NCBI GenBank assembly: GCA_964440805.1
Contig: CAYTTR010000003.1
Location: 22,888-86,887, forward strand
Direction: 5' to 3'
DNA: 64,000 nt
Source of the DNA: an uncultured Eubacteriales bacterium
GTDB lineage: Bacteria > Acidobacteriota > Aminicenantia > Aminicenantales > Aminicenantaceae
Below, piece by piece: positions 3,448 to 44,196 of the stretch. Every line of letters starts with the position of its first letter. The first letter of the stretch is position 1. The notes beneath the pieces are model-generated. The model worked only from the letters and a program-made list of their open reading frames with translations. It had not been told where the DNA came from and ran no database searches. The translations under genes and the position numbers were made by a program.

Positions 3448-3643
3448 GGAAATGAGTCCTCCTCGGATTTTCTTTATGTGGGCGGTTATGGATTTTCTCC
3501 ATTAAATCCTCTTCCTGAGGCGGAAAGATTACCATTATAATTTCTTTGCCCTCATACCACAACCAAAAACTTAATGAAGTAATTATCTTCAAAAATGTGA
3601 AGAGAGGTAAATAATTTCCATCAGGGAAATAGAGATGCTTCTC

Positions 3644-7776: not shown

Positions 7777-7800
7777 GAGGGGGACGTTCCCCCTTTTACC
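7777..7800. repeat. palindromic repeat P copy (GGGGGACGTTCCCCC followed by TTTT)
   Basis: ggagggggacgttcccccttttacc. Confidence 0.6.
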
Positions 7801-9712: not shown

Positions 9713-11806
9713 TCATTTCCTGGAGTCTTTCTTTTTTCTTTTTTCCTCAAGCTCGGCCATCAACTTTTCTGCCAGATCAGAAGGAAGCTTGCCGTAACGG
9801 AGAAACTCCATGGTGAATTCAGCTTTCCCCTGGGTAAGGGAACGAAGCACAGTTGAATATCCAAACATTTCACTCAAGGGAACCTCGACATCAATGCGGC
9901 TAAAAATTCCGTCTTCTATTGAACTGATAATTACTCCCCTTCTCTGGTTAAGACTGGCAAAAATATTCCCCGCAAATTCAGAGGGCCCTTCCACCGAAAC
10001 CTTCATTAAGGGTTCCAGAATCTGGGGGCAGGCCTTCCGGTAGGCTTGTTTGAAAGCTTCCCTGGCAGCTATCTGGAAAGCAATATCTGAGGAATCAACC
10101 GGATGATACTGGCCGTCCTCAAGAACAACTCTTACCCCAATAACAGGAAAGCCGGTCAAGTTCCCCTTTTCCAGGGACTGCTGGAATCCCTTGTCACAGG
10201 AAGGAATAAATTCCCGGGGAATCCGGCCTCTTTTGACTTGATTAACAAACTCATATCTTCCTTGTTCAAGAGGCTCCAAATAACCGCTCACTCTGCCGAA
10301 TTGCCCTGCCCCTCCGGTTTGTTTCTTATGAGTATAATCATAATTCGCTCTCCTGGTGATGGCTTCCCTGTAAGCTACCTGGGGCCTGCCTGTTTGGACC
10401 TCAGCCTTGTATTCCCTTTTAATCCTTTCCAAATAGACTTCCAGGTGAAGCTCTCCCATTCCCTGGATTATGGTCTGTTTTGATTCGGGATCAATATAAA
10501 CCCGGAAAGTGGGATCCTCTTTGACAAACCTCTGCAAGGCTTTTGACATCCGGTCGGATGATTTGCTGTCGGCTGCCTCCAAGGCGAAAGAAATTACAGG
10601 ATCAGGCACAAAAATCGAAGAAAGAGTCAGATTATGCCCAGGCTTGATAAAAGTATCACCAGAGACACATTCTATACCAAAAAGAGCCACTATATCACCG
10701 GGGCCGGCCTCTTCAATGTCTTCCATCTTGTCAGCGTGCATTCGGATCAAGCGTCCAACGCGGATATTTTTCTGGGCTCTGGTATTATATAGCTCATCTC
10801 CTTTCCCGAACTTACCCTGATAAACTCGAATGTAGGTCAACTGACCATAGGGAGTATCTTCAAGTTTAAAAGCCAGAGCCACAGTAGGAGCAGCCGGATC
10901 CGGGTAAAGCCTGACTTTTTGTTCTTCCTTGTCCAAATCCGCGGCAAAATTTTCCACTTCTCCCGGATGAGGTAGATAACGGCAGACCGCATCCAGCAAT
11001 GGCTGAACTCCTTTGTTGCGGTAAGCTGAACCCATAAAAACAGGGGTGAGTTTGCGGGCAAGAGTTCCTTTTCTTATGGCTTCGATAATCATCTCCTCAG
11101 TCTCTCTTCCTTCAAGGACTGCTTCCATTAATTCATCCGAAAACATAGAGGCGGCATCGAGAAGAATTTCTCTTTTCCGGGCAGCTTCCTCTTGCAGTTC
11201 AGGCGGGATCTCCTTTTCCCGCACCACTATTCCCTCTTCTCCTTCAAAATACAGGGCTTTCATGGATATAAGATCAACTACTCCTCGGTGTTTGTCTTCC
11301 AGTCCTATGGGAAACTGCATTAGGAGGGCATTATGTCCGAGAGTGTTGGCCAGTTGATCCCGAACCTTATAAGGATTAGCTCCGATCCGGTCACATTTAT
11401 TTATAAAAGCAATTAAAGGCACATTATAGCGCCGGAATTGCCGGTCAACCGTTATACTCTGAGACTGGACTCCTCCTACGGAACAGAGGACCAGAATTCC
11501 TCCATCAAGAACCCTCAAAGCTCTTTCCACTTCTATGGTGAAGTCCACATGACCTGGAGTATCGATGATATTTATCATGTAATCAATCCAGTTGACCGAG
11601 GTAGAAGCTGAAGAAATGGTTATTCCCCTTTCTCTTTCCAGCTCCATGGAATCCATAGTGGCTCCCACTCCGTCTTTTCCCCGGACTTCGTGCATTTTAT
11701 GTATTTTTTTGCAGTAAAATAGTATTCTTTCAGTTAGAGTAGTTTTGCCTGAATCAATATGGGCACTGATTCCAATATTCCTCATTTTTTCAATATCTAT
11801 CGCCAT
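9713..11806 (-). CDS. fusA: translation elongation factor G (paralog, not in the str operon context)
   Basis: 697 aa; [18 protein letters not shown]1 motif, full EF-G domain order; no rpsL/rpsG upstream. Confidence 0.9.
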
Positions 11807-11911: not shown

Positions 11912-11946
11912 AAGGGGACGTTCCCCAAGGTACCACCCCTTCCCAA
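11912..11946. repeat. palindromic repeat P variant (GGGGACGTTCCCC AAGGTACCACCCCTTCCC), plus orientation
   Basis: forms an inverted pair with the copy at 12328-12368. Confidence 0.6.
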
Positions 11947-12028
11947 GATCGAAATTAATATTCAATTTTGGTTTATTAAATTCACATGTTCTTTTCTATT
12001 TTTATTCAAGTAAGGTTGAAAAAATTAA

Positions 12029-12283
12029 GGGCATTAGATGTGCCTTCCGCTCTCCTTCGGCGCTTTTTCCGCCTTCTCTCACCGCTCTTCTCGGCAGCTG
12101 CGTAACTCCGCACCATTGTTCAATAAAAATCACTTTATTCTGTGTTCTGCGTTTATAATAGTCTAACCCATTTTTCCTGAGGCGTGCTCAATACATACTC
12201 GCTGTCCGACAAAGTCGGATTCCCCCGAATCGCAGTTCGAGAAGGCGTGCGCCTCAATGTCGCGGAAGGCACATTTAATGCCC
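12029..12283. mobile_element. TIR-bounded roughly 255-bp element (MITE-like or structured ncRNA), copy B, reverse orientation relative to copy A
   Basis: 22-bp terminal inverted repeats gggcattagatgtgccttccgc / gcggaaggcacatttaatgccc; core is homologous to 24183-24389 (blocks GCGACATTGAGGCGC, GGGAATCCGACTTTGTCGGA, GGAGTTACGCAGCTGCCGAGAAGAGCGGTGAGAGAA, GCGCCGAAG) and carries a roughly 60-nt AT-rich insertion. Confidence 0.55.
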
Positions 12284-12327
12284 TCCAAAAAAACATTTCT
12301 TACAAAAAGGTAAATAACGCCTCTCTT

Positions 12328-12368
12328 GGGGAAGGGGTGGTACCTTGGGGAACGTCCCCCCCTTTTTG
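12328..12368. repeat. palindromic repeat P variant, minus orientation (partner of 11912-11946)
   Basis: gggaaggggtggtaccttggggaacgtcccccccttttt. Confidence 0.6.
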
Positions 12369-13980: not shown

Positions 13981-16900
13981 ATGAGACAAAAGAAGAAAAG
14001 CAATAAAATTACTTCCGGAGAGAAAAAGAATTCTCCTCCATTAGACTCTGGCAAAAATAAGAGAAGCTCTCTCCCCTCCAGTTCAGAAGAAAAATTCAAT
14101 CTTATCTTTCAATACGCTCCTGATGCCTATTATATAAACGATTTTAAGGGAAATTTTCTTGATGGAAACCAGGCGGCTGAGGAACTCACAGGCTATAAGA
14201 AAGAAGAGCTTATCGGTAAGAATATGCTGGAATCAGGCCTTCTTCCGCCAGATCAAATTCCCATTGCCGCAAACAATCTCAAAAGGAATGCCGCAGGTGA
14301 AGCCACCGGCCCGGATGAAATCATAATTGTCCGCAAAGACAGCTCTCGTATTCCTGTTGAAATCAGGACCTTCCCTGTAACCATCCAGGGAAAATCCATG
14401 GTTCTGGCAATCGCCAGAGACATTTCAGCCCGAAATCAGAAGCAGGCTGAAAGAATCATCAGAAGGCGAAACGCTCAATTGGAACTTATCCGCCGTATCC
14501 AACAGGAAATCCCTATGGATACGGATATAGAGACAATTCTGAAAAATTCATCAGAGAGCATAGGAAAAATATTCGGCTATCATAAAGTTGCAGTTAACCT
14601 TTATGATGAAAAAACTAAAGAAATCATCCATCTTCTGGGCTGGAATACAACTGGAGTAGAGACTCCCCGCAATTACAGACAGAAGCTTGGCCAGGGCTTA
14701 ATAGGCAAAGCTGCCGCAGACCGCAAGACAATTCTTTGCAACGACGTCTCCACACATCCGGATTATTTCAGTTTACCCGGAGAAAAAACCCAATCTGAAC
14801 TATGTATTCCTCTTTTAGCCGAAAACAGGCTGGTCGGAGTGCTGGATATTCAAGACAACCGTTTGAATGCTATCTCTGAGGAAGATATATCCATCCTCAA
14901 ATCAATTGCCCGCTATATAGCCTATGTCATTAATGCCCGCCAGAAAGAAGAAGCATTGGAAGAAAGCCTGGGTAAACACCGGGATATCCTGACCAATATG
15001 CAGGAAGCTTATTATGAAACGGATCTCCAAGGAAACTTTACCTTCTTTAATGATTCTTTGTGCCTGATGTTGGACCTGCCTGCTTCCCGGATAAAGGGAA
15101 TGAACAACCGGGAGTACATGGATGAAGAAAGTGCCAAGAGGGTATTTAATATTTTCAATAAAGTCTACCAAACCGGTAAACCGTTTAAAGCAGTGGAGCT
15201 TGAAGTAACCAGGGAAGACGGCACCAGGCAGTATGTGGAGTTTTCGGTTTCCTTAAAAAAAGACCGTCAAGGTAAACCCTCGGGCTTCTGGGGAATAATC
15301 CATGATGTAACAGAGCACAAGGAAGCAGAAAAAGCTTTACAAAAGGCAAACACCTGGCTTAATTCTCTTATTATGGCTATACCCGATGTAGTTTATCTTA
15401 AAGATATTTACGGCCGCAACCTGGTAGTCAACAAAGCTTTCGAAGACTTGGCCGGTGTTCCCATAAGTAAAATTGAAGGGAAAAAAGATGATGAACTTCT
15501 TCCTCCGGACTTAGCTGAAAACTGCCGGAAAAGCGATTTAGATACAATTAAGACCAGGAAAGTCATCAAGCTGGAGGAAAAGTATACTATGCCCGAAGGA
15601 AAAATCCGTTATTTCGAAACCATTAAATCCCCCATTTATGATGAAAAAGGCCAAGTTGCCGGTCTGGTTGGAGTAAGCCGCGATATTACGGAGAGAAAAA
15701 ACTGGGAAAAAGAACTCAAGAGAAGCGAGATGGTCTACCGGGCTCTTTTTGAGCATGCCAATGATGCTGTTTTCCTGATGGATTTAAACGGCATCCATAT
15801 ATCGGCCAACCGGAGAGCAGCAGAAATGCTGGGATACAGCCGGGAGGAAATTATCGGCAAATCTTTTGAAGAACTGGTAGCTTTAAGCGAAAAAGAAGCT
15901 GCCCGGAAAAAATTAAAAAATATAATCGGAGGAAAAACTTTACCTACTTACGAACGCTACTTCAGGAGAAAGGACGGAAAAGAATTCCCGGCTGAAATCA
16001 ATGTTTCCTTAATAAAAGACAGCTCCGGTAACCCCATAATGATTCAAAGCATTGCCCGGGATATCACTGAACGGAAGCAGTTTGAAGAAAAATTAAAGTT
16101 ATCTGACGCAATTCTTCAAAATGTAGGAAATATTATCCTGGTTGGAGACACCAAAGGAGATATTATTTATGCCTGCCCGGCTGTTGAAACCAGCCTGGGT
16201 TATAAACCGGAAGAAGTTCTGGGAGACGGCTGGTGGAAGCTTTCCCGCGAAGATCCAGAAGAAAGGAAAAAGGAAAAAGAACTGGTAGCCCGTTTTGCCA
16301 GAGGGGAAGCTAAAATAAGAGAAGATCTCTACGAGGCTGAACTTGTTCACAAAAACGGCAGCAAACGGTGGATCCTCTGGCACGACTCCAAAGGACCGGC
16401 TGGAACCGTAATCGGGGTTGGTTACGACATTACTGAACGCAAAAAAGCCCAGGCCCAGTTACAATACTCCCTTCAAGAGAAAGAAATTCTGCTTAAAGAA
16501 ATACACCACCGGGTTAAAAACAACTTGCAGGTAATTTCAAGCCTGCTTAATCTTCAGTTAAGAAAAATAACCGATCCCGATTACGTAACCATTTTCAAAG
16601 AAAGCCAGAACCGCATCCGTTCCATGGCCTTGGTTCATGATATGCTTTACCGTTCAGAAAGCCTTAACCAAATTGATTTCTCCTCCTATATAAAAAGCCT
16701 GACCGATTATCTCTTGCAATCCTACCAGGTGACCAAGAAAGATATAAAACTCCATTACCAGGTCGAAAACATCCCCTTGGATATTTCCACTGCTATCTCC
16801 TGCGGCTTGATTATAAATGAGCTGGTTTCCAATGTCTTGAAACATGCTTTCCCGCCGGGGGAAAAAGGAGATATTCACCTTACTTTTAAAAAACTTAAAG

Positions 16901-21230: not shown

Positions 21231-21318
21231 AAACAGACTGAACAAACCGAATAGACGAAATCAACACAACTAACGCTATAAACGCAATTAACGCAATTAA
21301 CGCTTCTCTCGTCTCGCC
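21231..21318. repeat. composite intergenic repeat (arrays and GAG-box, reverse orientation)
   Basis: aaacagactgaacaaaccgaatagacgaaa...aacgcaattaacgcaattaacgcttctctcgtctcgcc. Confidence 0.6.
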
Positions 21319-21352: not shown

Positions 21353-21388
21353 CCAGGGAAAAGGGTGTCCCTTTGGGGAACGTCCCTC
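21353..21388. repeat. palindromic repeat P copy (minus orientation) followed by a T-run; candidate bidirectional terminator between SpoU(+) and HtrA(-)
   Basis: ccagggaaaagggtgtccctttggggaacgtccctc then tttttat. Confidence 0.55.
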
Positions 21389-24182: not shown

Positions 24183-24389
24183 ACAATAAGAAATCATCAG
24201 ATATGCCCGGAGCGACATTGAGGCGCTAGTCTTCTCGAGCCGCTATTCGAGGGAATCTGATTTCGTCGGACGGCGAGTGCGCATTAAGCTGACGGAATGG
24301 AGTTACGCAGCCGCCGAGAAGAGCGGTGAGAGAATGGCGAAAAAAGCGCCGAAGTAAAGCGGAGGGCATACCTGATGATTTCTTATTGT
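24183..24389. mobile_element. TIR-bounded roughly 207-bp element (MITE-like or structured ncRNA), copy A
   Basis: 25-bp TIRs cacaataagaaatcatcagatatgccc / gggcatacctgatgatttcttattgt (1 mismatch); core homologous to 12029-12283 with compensatory stem changes. Confidence 0.55.
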
Positions 24390-31823: not shown

Positions 31824-31860
31824 AAGGGGGACGCTCCCCAAAGGGACACCTCTTCCCCTG
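31824..31860. repeat. palindromic repeat P copy (plus orientation)
   Basis: aagggggacgctccccaaagggacacctcttcccctg. Confidence 0.6.
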
Positions 31861-31869
31861 AACAAATTA

Positions 31870-31985
31870 GTTTATTGCGTTTATTGCGTTTATTGCGTTT
31901 ATTGCGTTCATTTAGTTTGTCTGGTTTATCTGGTTTGTCTGGTTTATTTAGTTTAGAAGAAGGGTGAGGCGGGTGAGAAATGATT
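31870..31985. repeat. composite intergenic repeat: 4 x GCGTTTATT, then TAGTTTGTC/TGGTTTATC units, then GAG-like box
   Basis: gtttattgcgtttattgcgtttattgcgtttattgcgttcatttagtttgtctggtttatctggtttgtctggtttatttagttta gaagaagggtgaggcgggtgagaaa. Confidence 0.65.
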
Positions 31986-33910: not shown

Positions 33911-35262
33911 GAGCCCGAGAAGTAATTCTGCTAGCCTTGCTTCTTGCCGGGGGCATTCTGTTTACCCAAATTTATACCGGCAAACTGGATGTAAGCTGGG
34001 GATTTGACGAATTTCCCTTCTGGCACCTTAAAGAGTTCGAATTCGAGGAAAGAGAAATCATCTCACCTCCTCTACCTCCTGAATTGGAATTATTAAACGC
34101 TCACGGCGAGGTGGAGATTGAAGGCACGGATGATGAACAAATCAATATCATCTTTCTTAAAAAGTTCCGGAGAAAAAATCAAGATGAGGCCGCGGCTGAG
34201 GCTGCCGGCCTCCGCCTATTCGCAAGCAAGAGCAAAGAACGCCTGAAGCTTTCCAGCAACAGGGATGAAGTAAGAAAAAAGAACCTGAAGACCTGCTTCA
34301 AAATCCAAGTCCCTTCATCAATGAAGATCAAAGTGGAAAACTCTTATGGCCTGGTCATGGTGCAAAATGTCCGCGATACAGAAATCAGCAACCCTTACGG
34401 CAAAACAATAGTCTCAGACATTAATGGAACTCTGAACCTAACCAATAAATACAAGAATGTAGAAGTCACCGGAGTTTCTTCTTCATGTCAGATAGAAAGC
34501 CATTACTCAAAGGTTTACCTGAAGGATGTAGCGGGAGAAACAAACATCAGTCATTCCTATGGAACCTTGAACCTGGAAAATCTTTCTGCCGGATTGACAC
34601 TCCAAGGAAGACACAGTGTGGTGGAAGGTTTTAAACTTACCGGTCCAAACCAGATTGAAACAACTTATAAAAAAATCCGCCTTGTTGAAATAGGCCCGAC
34701 AAAACTAATTACTCATAATTCCCCGGTTGAAGTTATTCAAGCCGATGGAGATATTTTTATCGAAAACAGCTACGACAGAGTAAGTCTAAAAAAAATAAGG
34801 GGAAATTTAACCGTCAAAGGAAAATACCTTCGGCTCTCCGGTGCTAATATCAGAGGAGATTTCCTGGATATATCATCATCATACAGGGAAATTGAGCTTT
34901 CCCGCTTCTCTGGACAAACAAAAATTCTTCTTTCTCATGGTGATCTCATTCTTGTTCCTGACTCATTAACTGCTCCCCTTGAAATCAATGGAGATTATGT
35001 CAATATCAGCCTGACCTGGCCGGCCGGAGGAAGATATCCTTTGGAAATCCATAACAAAGGGGGAGAAACCAACTGGTTGCTAAAAGAAAAGGCTTCCTTT
35101 GAAACCTTAAATAACACAACTACCCTCAAAGCCTTCAGTCAGGAAAAAACCCAGCCCTCAATATCCATCTCCACCACCTACGGAACCGTTACTATAAGAG
35201 AAGGGGACGTTCCCCAAAGGGACACCCTTTCCCCTGAAGGAAATAGCTTATCGCTTTATTGA
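33907..35262 (+). CDS. DUF4097-type putative adhesin / beta-helical repeat protein with N-terminal TM (YvlB-like)
   Basis: repeated N-x-Y/G-x-I/V-x-V beta-strand units; start ATG at 33907 overlaps the previous stop; the last 13 codons are encoded by repeat P. Confidence 0.5.
   Translation: MRAREVILLALLLAGGILFTQIYTGKLDVSWGFDEFPFWHLKEFEFEEREIISPPLPPELELLNAHGEVEIEGTDDEQINIIFLKKFRRKNQDEAAAEAAGLRLFASKSKERLKLSSNRDEVRKKNLKTCFKIQVPSSMKIKVENSYGLVMVQNVRDTEISNPYGKTIVSDINGTLNLTNKYKNVEVTGVSSSCQIESHYSKVYLKDVAGETNISHSYGTLNLENLSAGLTLQGRHSVVEGFKLTGPNQIETTYKKIRLVEIGPTKLITHNSPVEVIQADGDIFIENSYDRVSLKKIRGNLTVKGKYLRLSGANIRGDFLDISSSYREIELSRFSGQTKILLSHGDLILVPDSLTAPLEINGDYVNISLTWPAGGRYPLEIHNKGGETNWLLKEKASFETLNNTTTLKAFSQEKTQPSISISTTYGTVTIREGDVPQRDTLSPEGNSLSLY
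35200..35240. repeat. palindromic repeat P, best full copy (plus orientation), embedded in the 3' end of the DUF4097 CDS
   Basis: gaaggggacgttccccaaagggacaccctttcccctgaagg. Confidence 0.65.
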
Positions 35263-37934: not shown

Positions 37935-37974
37935 AGAAGGGACGTTCCCCAAAAGGACACCCTTTTCCCTGGAC
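37935..37974. repeat. palindromic repeat P copy (plus orientation)
   Basis: gagaagggacgttccccaaaaggacacccttttccctggac. Confidence 0.6.
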
Positions 37975-44014: not shown

Positions 44015-44196
44015 CGTCTATTCAGTTAAAACAAAATAAGTGAGTGAAACGAACAAAATTAATAGAAAGGGTTGATTGCGTTTATAGAGTTTATTGCGTT
44101 TGTTGCGTTGACTGTTTTCGTAATTAAGAAATTAATTAACCATGACCGACTTAAAACTGCGATAAACACAATAAACGCAATCAACTACTGGTTGCG
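44015..44196. repeat. composite intergenic repeat (array plus inverted array)
   Basis: cgtctattcagtt...ttgattgcgtttatagagtttattgcgtttgttgcgttgactg...gataaacacaataaacgcaatcaac. Confidence 0.5.

Follow-up and report, generated by a model that had tools for sequence, protein, structure and literature searches.

Sequence and structural analysis of the window (the whole 64-kb stretch of DNA studied here) suggests that two copies of a structured element within it, A and B, are probably diverged members of a small non-coding MITE-type family whose interior fold acts as RNA. The family is undescribed, and the kind of repeat to which it belongs, exemplified by bcr1, ERIC, and Correia, is already known. 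The best reading of the structural model derived from six full copies places the fold at the RNA level, with single-stranded DNA being the less likely substrate.

Copies A and B and other repeats in the window

Copies A and B have in common a core of about 190 nucleotides that is 85% identical in a MAFFT alignment, and this alignment, together with exact-word counts, bears out the shared blocks and the positions that had been given for them in an earlier note on this DNA. Copy A (24183 to 24389, plus strand) is a complete element comprising a rod and a three-way-junction core, in which the variable arm is missing; its limits follow from its inverted repeat, and it is further supported by its fold and by the covariance model R1, which gives it 180.7 bits at 24188 to 24384. 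Copy B (12028 to 12284, minus strand) is a complete element with the variable arm, recognized by its inverted repeat, fold, and R1 score, the last being 164.6 bits on the minus (sense) strand versus 31.5 bits on the plus (antisense) strand. The predicted RNA folds have energies of -96 kcal/mol for A and -109.5 kcal/mol for B, corresponding to z scores of -8.0 and -8.9, respectively, against dinucleotide shuffles.

As the earlier note had also remarked, the inverted-repeat limits of A and B reveal that each copy has a terminal inverted repeat of its own. The closing rod of A, as defined by the inverted repeat and the pair list, is formed by the 5' strand ACAATAAGAAATCATCAGATATGCCC (24183 to 24208, plus strand) and the 3' strand GGGCATACCTGATGATTTCTTATTGT (24364 to 24389, plus strand), which join in 18 perfect pairs, one A-C mismatch, and 7 further pairs. 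In B, the 5' strand (12262 to 12284, minus strand) and the 3' strand (12028 to 12050, minus strand), the latter then followed by TAATTTTTT, are complementary at 22 of 23 positions of the inverted repeat. Between the rods lies the most conserved stretch, a 36-nt block, GGAGTTACGCAGCYGCCGAGAAGAGCGGTGAGAGAA, which occurs exactly twice in the 64-kb window (24299 to 24334 on the plus strand in A and 12074 to 12109 on the minus strand in B), with about zero occurrences expected by chance; the same is true of the 15-mer GCGACATTGAGGCGC, which is found once in each copy and nowhere else in the window. In copy A, the block supplies the 3' strands of the central helix and of the arm base, including two tandem G-A/A-G sites. 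The variable hairpin of the three-way junction (helix 5), as placed from the pair counts, corresponds to TCTGATTTCGTCGGA in A (24256 to 24270, plus strand) and TCCGACTTTGTCGGA in B (12205 to 12219, minus strand). The AT-rich variable arm of B (12110 to 12185, minus strand) is absent from A, where 9 nucleotides occupy the site in place of the 76 in B, and the four full homologs from the second lineage have 70 to 79 nucleotides of unrelated sequence there. Because these four homologs and B all carry the arm, copy A is the deleted form, and the polarity of what had been described as an AT-rich insertion in B is thereby reversed.

Copy A is flanked by the genes for an ECF sigma factor and a biotin carboxyl carrier protein, and copy B by those for EF-G and an XRE/ImmA-type regulator. 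A TATAAT box is found 4 nt upstream of A and a U-run is found 3' of B; scans for promoters and terminators yielded only background levels. We rejected the possibility of a composite transposon spanning the 12 kb between A and B because the sigma/anti-sigma/HtrA/SpoU block is syntenic in relatives free of the element.

Several other repeats are present in the window. A REP-like motif of about 35 nucleotides, CAGGGGAARGGGTGTCCCTTTGGGGAACGTCCCC, has seven occurrences (11914 to 11944, 12329 to 12359, 7780 to 7794, 21373 to 21387, 31827 to 31841, 35203 to 35217, and 37938 to 37952), with 0.56 being the expectation for a 15-mer, and in several cases lies about 10 nt upstream of a -35-like TTGACT or TTGCAT box. 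Two inverted copies of this motif bracket copy B, resulting in a perfect 31-bp "outer" inverted repeat (11914 to 11944 and 12329 to 12359), which we rejected as a part of the element since it consists of two copies of a separate dispersed motif. Further, a 9-nt unit, AACGCAATA, forms arrays, either tandem or inverted, at several intergenic locations (21278 to 21297, 31874 to 31911, 44075 to 44103, and 44162 to 44181), and ATAAACGCAAT, with no more than one mismatch, has 15 matches versus 1.2 expected. Two of these arrays adjoin the REP-like motif, and an inverted repeat at 44071 to 44185 is built from the 9-nt units, which may be iteron-like protein-binding sites.

Distribution and mobility of the family

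When 185,579 representative genomes were scanned for an exact 20-mer, one metagenome-assembled genome (MAG) was matched twice (loci L001 and L003), the other four matches being chance occurrences in GC-rich coding DNA. An exact 19-mer scan of metagenomes added L011 and L012, plus duplicates of L001 and L003, and a hand-built covariance model with HMMs retrieved one internally deleted copy (L036) and one core-less remnant (L037). The exact-word scans recovered four more full copies, all in other Aminicenantes contigs and each about 320 nt long. With the R1 model, about 300 kb of Aminicenantes DNA yielded no copy beyond these, collections of phage, plasmid, and Escherichia coli genomes contain no sequence match to the element, and a literature search for Aminicenantes repeats or RNAs returned nothing specific. 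On the basis of the genome, metagenome, and model searches, the family is so far restricted to a few Candidatus Aminicenantes lineages, and both lineages that carry the element are Aminicenantes. For the window, the assignment to Acidobacteriota/Candidatus Aminicenantes comes from its sigma factor, which has 99% identity to a protein bearing that name. The MAG with L001 and L003 (CAZIDF010000011.1 and CAZIDF010000006.1) is labeled "uncultured Eubacteriales bacterium"; it encodes an outer-membrane protein of the FadL type as well as a MutS with 85% identity to the one from a closed Candidatus Aminicenantes genome. This label is probably wrong.

In the core, the window copies are 69 to 76% identical to those of the second lineage, which are 84 to 93% identical among themselves. 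All homologs are intergenic, and comparisons by tblastx and of ORF lists revealed no flanking genes common to any two copies, the neighbors in all seven contexts being unrelated housekeeping genes. The downstream gene is codirectional with the sense strand in five of the six full copies and likewise in the deleted copy L036, an arrangement that would be weakly consistent with a function on transcripts reading through the element. Two other loci, L016 and the viral L020, were rejected as distant relatives, since they have only the seed 19-mer in common with the element and do not match the HMM of the 5' block. These loci (L016, 1400 to 1720; L020, 1780 to 2100, IMGVR_UViG_3300032291_003009) have in common a GC-rich stretch of about 300 nt (…CCGAGGGGGAAATGCGTAGGA…GGCCGAGAAGAGCGGTGAGAGAGTGGCC…) that contains the seed 19-mer by chance, matches no Rfam family, and bears no relationship to the element; it could represent a further phage region that is structured or coding.

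In the second lineage, the approximately 190-nt module sits within a MITE of about 325 bp with terminal inverted repeats of 22 to 25 bp (GGAAGCATC...GATGCTTCC). Its left end, GGAAGCATCyyTATTTCCGTGA, is found at the start of L001, L003, L011, L012, and L036, and its right end is GGATGCTTCC. Across the family, the copies range from 207 to 328 bp. Flanking 9-bp target-site duplications are seen in the second lineage. In L036, whose terminal repeats are intact (GGAAGCATTCTTATTTCCGCGATAT ... ATATCACGGAAACAAGGACGCTTCC), the duplication is TTGCTGAAG/TTGCTGAAA, with a match at 8 of 9 positions, and in L012 it is TCGACTTTT/TCGACATTTT, a 9-bp duplication except that its right copy has one extra base. 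The duplication at L003 has decayed, and none was seen at L011.

Orthologous loci fetched through their flanking proteins provide the corresponding empty sites. Upstream of mutS, the element is present in L003, and the site is empty in L027, L029, L030, L033, and L034, the MutS proteins of which are 84 to 88% identical. The spacer between the cooC and mtaA-like genes is filled in L001 and L036 and cleanly empty in L035 and L037, with L037 displaying the uninterrupted target (...TCTCTGCAGGAG|AAAAAAATAGAAC). The site of copy A, between the biotin carboxyl carrier and sigma factor genes, lacks the module in the syntenic relative L026. The terminal inverted repeats, 9-bp duplications, and clean empty sites in close relatives together indicate that the family moves as DNA, and these hallmarks suggest that it spread through a trans-acting DDE-type transposase making 9-bp staggered cuts. 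No transposase or autonomous partner was found in the loci scanned, where no inverted pair of the terminal repeats encloses a gene. A viral locus (L032) that matches the terminal-repeat pattern does so by chance, inside a coding region. The two incomplete copies bear on the importance of the interior: L036 is devoid of the 36-nt block, and L037 (about 1760 to 1880) retains only the ends and the rod. As both persist, the fold must be dispensable at individual sites.

Of the alternatives "MITE or novel ncRNA" offered earlier, each is partly supported. The MITE half is borne out in the related genomes, with their terminal inverted repeats, duplications, and empty sites; the window copies themselves show neither the repeats nor the duplications. 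The target-site duplications for which a check had been suggested are present in the second lineage, and none was seen at A or B. Neither A nor B has terminal repeats of the MITE type, their inverted repeats being copy specific, and local alignments of their flanks with the MITE ends are no better than those of shuffled sequences (p 0.11 to 0.83). The window copies have lost, or never had, the transposon ends and are probably immobile.

The 22-mer terminal repeat is not confined to the element described above: in L031, it bounds a different, shorter "type 2" element. The two type-2 MITE copies of this locus (9814 to 9943 and about 16030 to 16174, minus strand) have a conserved 85-nt left part of their own and share the 22-bp terminal repeat with type 1; one of them, L031a, is flanked by a perfect 9-bp duplication (9 of 9), GATATTTGT. 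A solitary 22-mer in the window, AGAAGCATCTCTATTTCCCTGA (3621 to 3642, minus strand), matches the terminal repeat of the type-1 and type-2 MITEs at 20 of 22 positions and, judging from this match, is a remnant of the same transposon family outside copies A and B. The segment from 3470 to 3642, between an acetyltransferase-like ORF and a transketolase gene, is a decayed type-2 left end. Inverted structures of another kind occur in L026, which has two copies (2593 to 2687 and 9900 to 9996) of a 65-bp perfect palindrome (AAATAATTAAAGGGACATCATACTTAATTC, a 5-nt center, and the reverse complement). Their flanks are copy specific and perfectly inverted for 15 to 29 bp more, with one arm including a native TTGACT promoter box, and one of the copies occupies the site orthologous to that of copy A. 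The pattern resembles that expected if the flanking DNA had undergone inverted duplication at a palindromic element.

The near-perfect rods and full cores that A and B retain, with neither terminal repeats nor duplications around them, could also be accounted for if the module were a host non-coding RNA gene (trans-acting, e.g., protein sequestering) that was captured by the MITE of one lineage, with A and B being native paralogs. The constancy of the 36-nt block, which has only one to four positional differences among the six full copies, and the TATAAT box just upstream of A would fit such an origin. We nevertheless regard it as rather unlikely: the near-invariant 19/20-mer is found in only one representative genome and four distinct metagenome contigs, the module is missing from the site of A in the syntenic relative, the approximately 300 kb of other Aminicenantes DNA contained no more copies, the known copies lie in unrelated contexts, and deleted copies persist. 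The sporadic distribution and the persistence of deleted copies likewise argue against the element being a housekeeping RNA. A dispersed MITE-type family with a structured interior, rather than a captured host gene, is the reading that we favor.

Conservation of the interior fold

The predicted fold consists of a long rod with two or three tandem G-A/A-G sites that leads to a three-way junction, from which a short variable hairpin and a length-variable arm extend. It comprises seven helices, namely, an 18-bp inner rod, a 2-bp clamp, a 9-bp helix, a 19-pair central helix that is interrupted by the tandem G-A/A-G sites, the 5-bp hairpin stem, and two arm helices. For counting pairs, we used a hand-registered alignment of six rows, from which the variable arm was removed and in which N placeholders were set in two unpaired stretches (three in L011). 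In this alignment, whose hand registration leans towards the proposed structure and whose six copies represent only about three independent lineages, standard pairs occupy 95.5% of 359 cells, versus 40 to 48% when the partners are slid by 1 to 3 columns. Changes on both sides are seen in 22 of 60 pairs, against a mean of 9.4 in shuffled alignments, and none of 500 shuffles reached the real alignment in any of five pairing measures. The double changes cluster in the rod, where they affect 12 of 18 pairs, and in the 9-bp helix and the hairpin, where they affect 4 of 9 and 4 of 5 pairs, respectively; the 19 pairs of the central helix are conserved in sequence and have never changed on both sides. 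The instance that the earlier note had singled out as compensatory, TCTGA...TCGGA in A versus TCCGAC...GTCGGA in B, does not belong among these, being two one-sided C-to-U changes opposite G that convert G-C to G-U pairs; true double changes are present elsewhere, e.g., CGGC/GCCG in A versus CAGC/GCUG in B.

The pattern of noncanonical pairs is strand specific. There are 33 G-U cells versus 6 A-C cells, corresponding to roughly 21 versus 5 to 6 independent events, and in all six copies the sense strand folds more stably, by 7 to 39 kcal/mol, than its antisense counterpart. Conservation is not limited to the terminal inverted repeats, the pattern that had been linked to a dead MITE; the interior is the best-conserved part of the element and not neutral filler. 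No reading frame is conserved: stop-free stretches occur on both strands and in different frames in each copy, the core has 1-nt indels, and the open frames of the element have no Pfam matches. With respect to the ncRNA half of the original alternatives, the covariation and the strand-specific excess of G-U over A-C speak for it, and the dispensability of the core at single sites, as in L036 and L037, speaks against it.

Nearly the whole element forms one imperfect palindrome, and other perfect palindromes with copy-specific inverted duplications of their flanks are present in these genomes. Both features would suit a structure maintained at the level of DNA with no RNA role, either as foldback inverted repeats that co-evolve via transposase binding or as a folding single-stranded DNA intermediate; G-T wobbles and tandem G-A pairs are also tolerated in folded single-stranded DNA. 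Such a DNA-level structure seems quite improbable to us as the whole explanation. Protein-binding inverted repeats would not yield the 33:6 asymmetry of G-U to A-C cells, and the non-complementary G-A/A-G positions are conserved in most or all copies. Moreover, covariation is also seen in local helices that lie outside the left/right symmetry of the palindrome, namely, helix 5 (the hairpin) and helices 6 and 7 (the arm), and the terminal repeats and 9-bp duplications point to double-stranded cut-or-copy-and-paste transposition rather than to a single-strand mechanism. A purely double-stranded-DNA explanation is disfavored by the preference for G-U, by the conservation of G-A sites that are not complementary, and by the covariation of these local helices.

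That the element is a diverged form of a known RNA (6S, Y RNA, SRP, tmRNA, retron msr/msd, omega/reRNA, or a self-cleaving ribozyme), as its long closing stem with a conserved apical domain and the CUGAUGA word in the stem of copy A might suggest, is hardly credible, given that Rfam 15 at an E value of ≤10 returned only chance snoRNA/sRNA matches for A, B, and the long form L001, that at gathering scores it yielded tRNAs only in 188 kb (three in the 64-kb window and the rest in a further 124 kb of related loci), that the copies have no conserved neighbor encoding a reverse transcriptase, TnpB, IscB, or Ro, and that the CUGAUGA word is found neither in B nor in the other lineage. The Rfam result agrees with the earlier note, which had matched the core to no tmRNA, RNase P, SRP, 6S, or group II intron motifs. 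In the same vein, we rejected a retron or guide-RNA reading because none of the copies has a gene for a reverse transcriptase, TnpB, or IscB nearby, and no Ro-type gene neighbors A or B. The idea of a hammerhead, prompted by the CUGAUGA word, was likewise abandoned, there being no Rfam ribozyme match.

Relationship to known repeats and biological implications

Protein-less mobile elements with a structured RNA as their main content have a precedent in the PATEs, non-autonomous derivatives of IS200/IS605 elements that still encode guide-RNA scaffolds. The PATEs have no terminal inverted repeats or target duplications and possess a free guide segment, whereas the Aminicenantes element has both RNA ends locked in the rod and bears DDE-type hallmarks. 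A closer parallel is bcr1 of the Bacillus cereus group, which is mobile, flanked by direct repeats, and transcribed, with an RNA fold kept by compensatory changes (PMC3184786). As with bcr1, the present family is a small dispersed intergenic repeat at non-conserved genomic positions with short flanking direct repeats, in which compensatory base-pair changes keep the double-stranded structure and some copies have lost stability (PMC3184786). The two differ in size and in their flanks: bcr1 is about 155 bp long with 5-bp direct repeats (PMC3184786), and the Aminicenantes family ranges over 207 to 328 bp with 9-bp duplications. Further, bcr1 lacks comparable long conserved terminal inverted repeats, comes from a different phylum, and is known to be transcribed, whereas transcription of the Aminicenantes element is predicted. 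To our knowledge, there is no sequence similarity between the two.

The ERIC/IRU repeats of Enterobacteriaceae are also intergenic imperfect palindromes that are classed as MITEs, show presence/absence polymorphism, and have a fold thought to matter at the RNA level (PMC3184786). ERIC is about 127 bp long with TA flanks (PMC3184786), unlike the Aminicenantes element with its three-way junction and tandem G-A sites. The latter has no match to any E. coli genome. ERIC varies in size through insertions or deletions at fixed internal points, and its sequence is unusually conserved across species. Transcripts of the Correia elements of Neisseria, in turn, form long hairpins that are cleaved by RNase III. 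These Correia/NEMIS elements resemble the present family in being MITEs with terminal inverted repeats of about 26 bp, short duplications, and internal deletion variants (PMC3184786). In Correia, however, it is mainly the ends that are conserved, and promoters and an IHF site are carried; in the Aminicenantes element, the center is the most conserved part.

These comparisons, along with the conservation of the fold, allow a mechanism to be proposed for the favored MITE-type family with an RNA-level interior. The family would spread as DNA, moved in trans by a DDE-type transposase, and the entity under selection would be its sense-strand transcript, a structured RNA of 200 to 330 nt. Our guess, by analogy with what has been proposed for bcr1, ERIC, and Correia, is that it might serve as a very stable protein-binding module or as an RNase III-type processing or stability module on the transcripts that bear it. 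A bolder interpretation of the same structural model, which we entertain only tentatively, is that the module, with its nearly invariant central helix, represents a new class of functional RNA with the DDE-type MITE as its vehicle, in which case it might bind a specific protein or act as a catalyst. If this were true, A and B would be domesticated RNA genes that selection has kept after the decay of the transposon ends.

Aminicenantes are abundant uncultivated bacteria of sediments and the subsurface, from which almost no mobile elements or non-coding RNAs have been described. The family reported here provides a defined MITE for which the ends, the 9-bp duplications, and empty sites are known and whose interior displays unusually strong strand-specific structural conservation. 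If its fold does not act as RNA, it would be one more bacterial repeat family and a caution that mobile DNA can come with long stems specific to each copy and with "compensatory" changes. If the fold does work as RNA, the family would be a rare example in which a DNA transposon spreads a structured RNA module.
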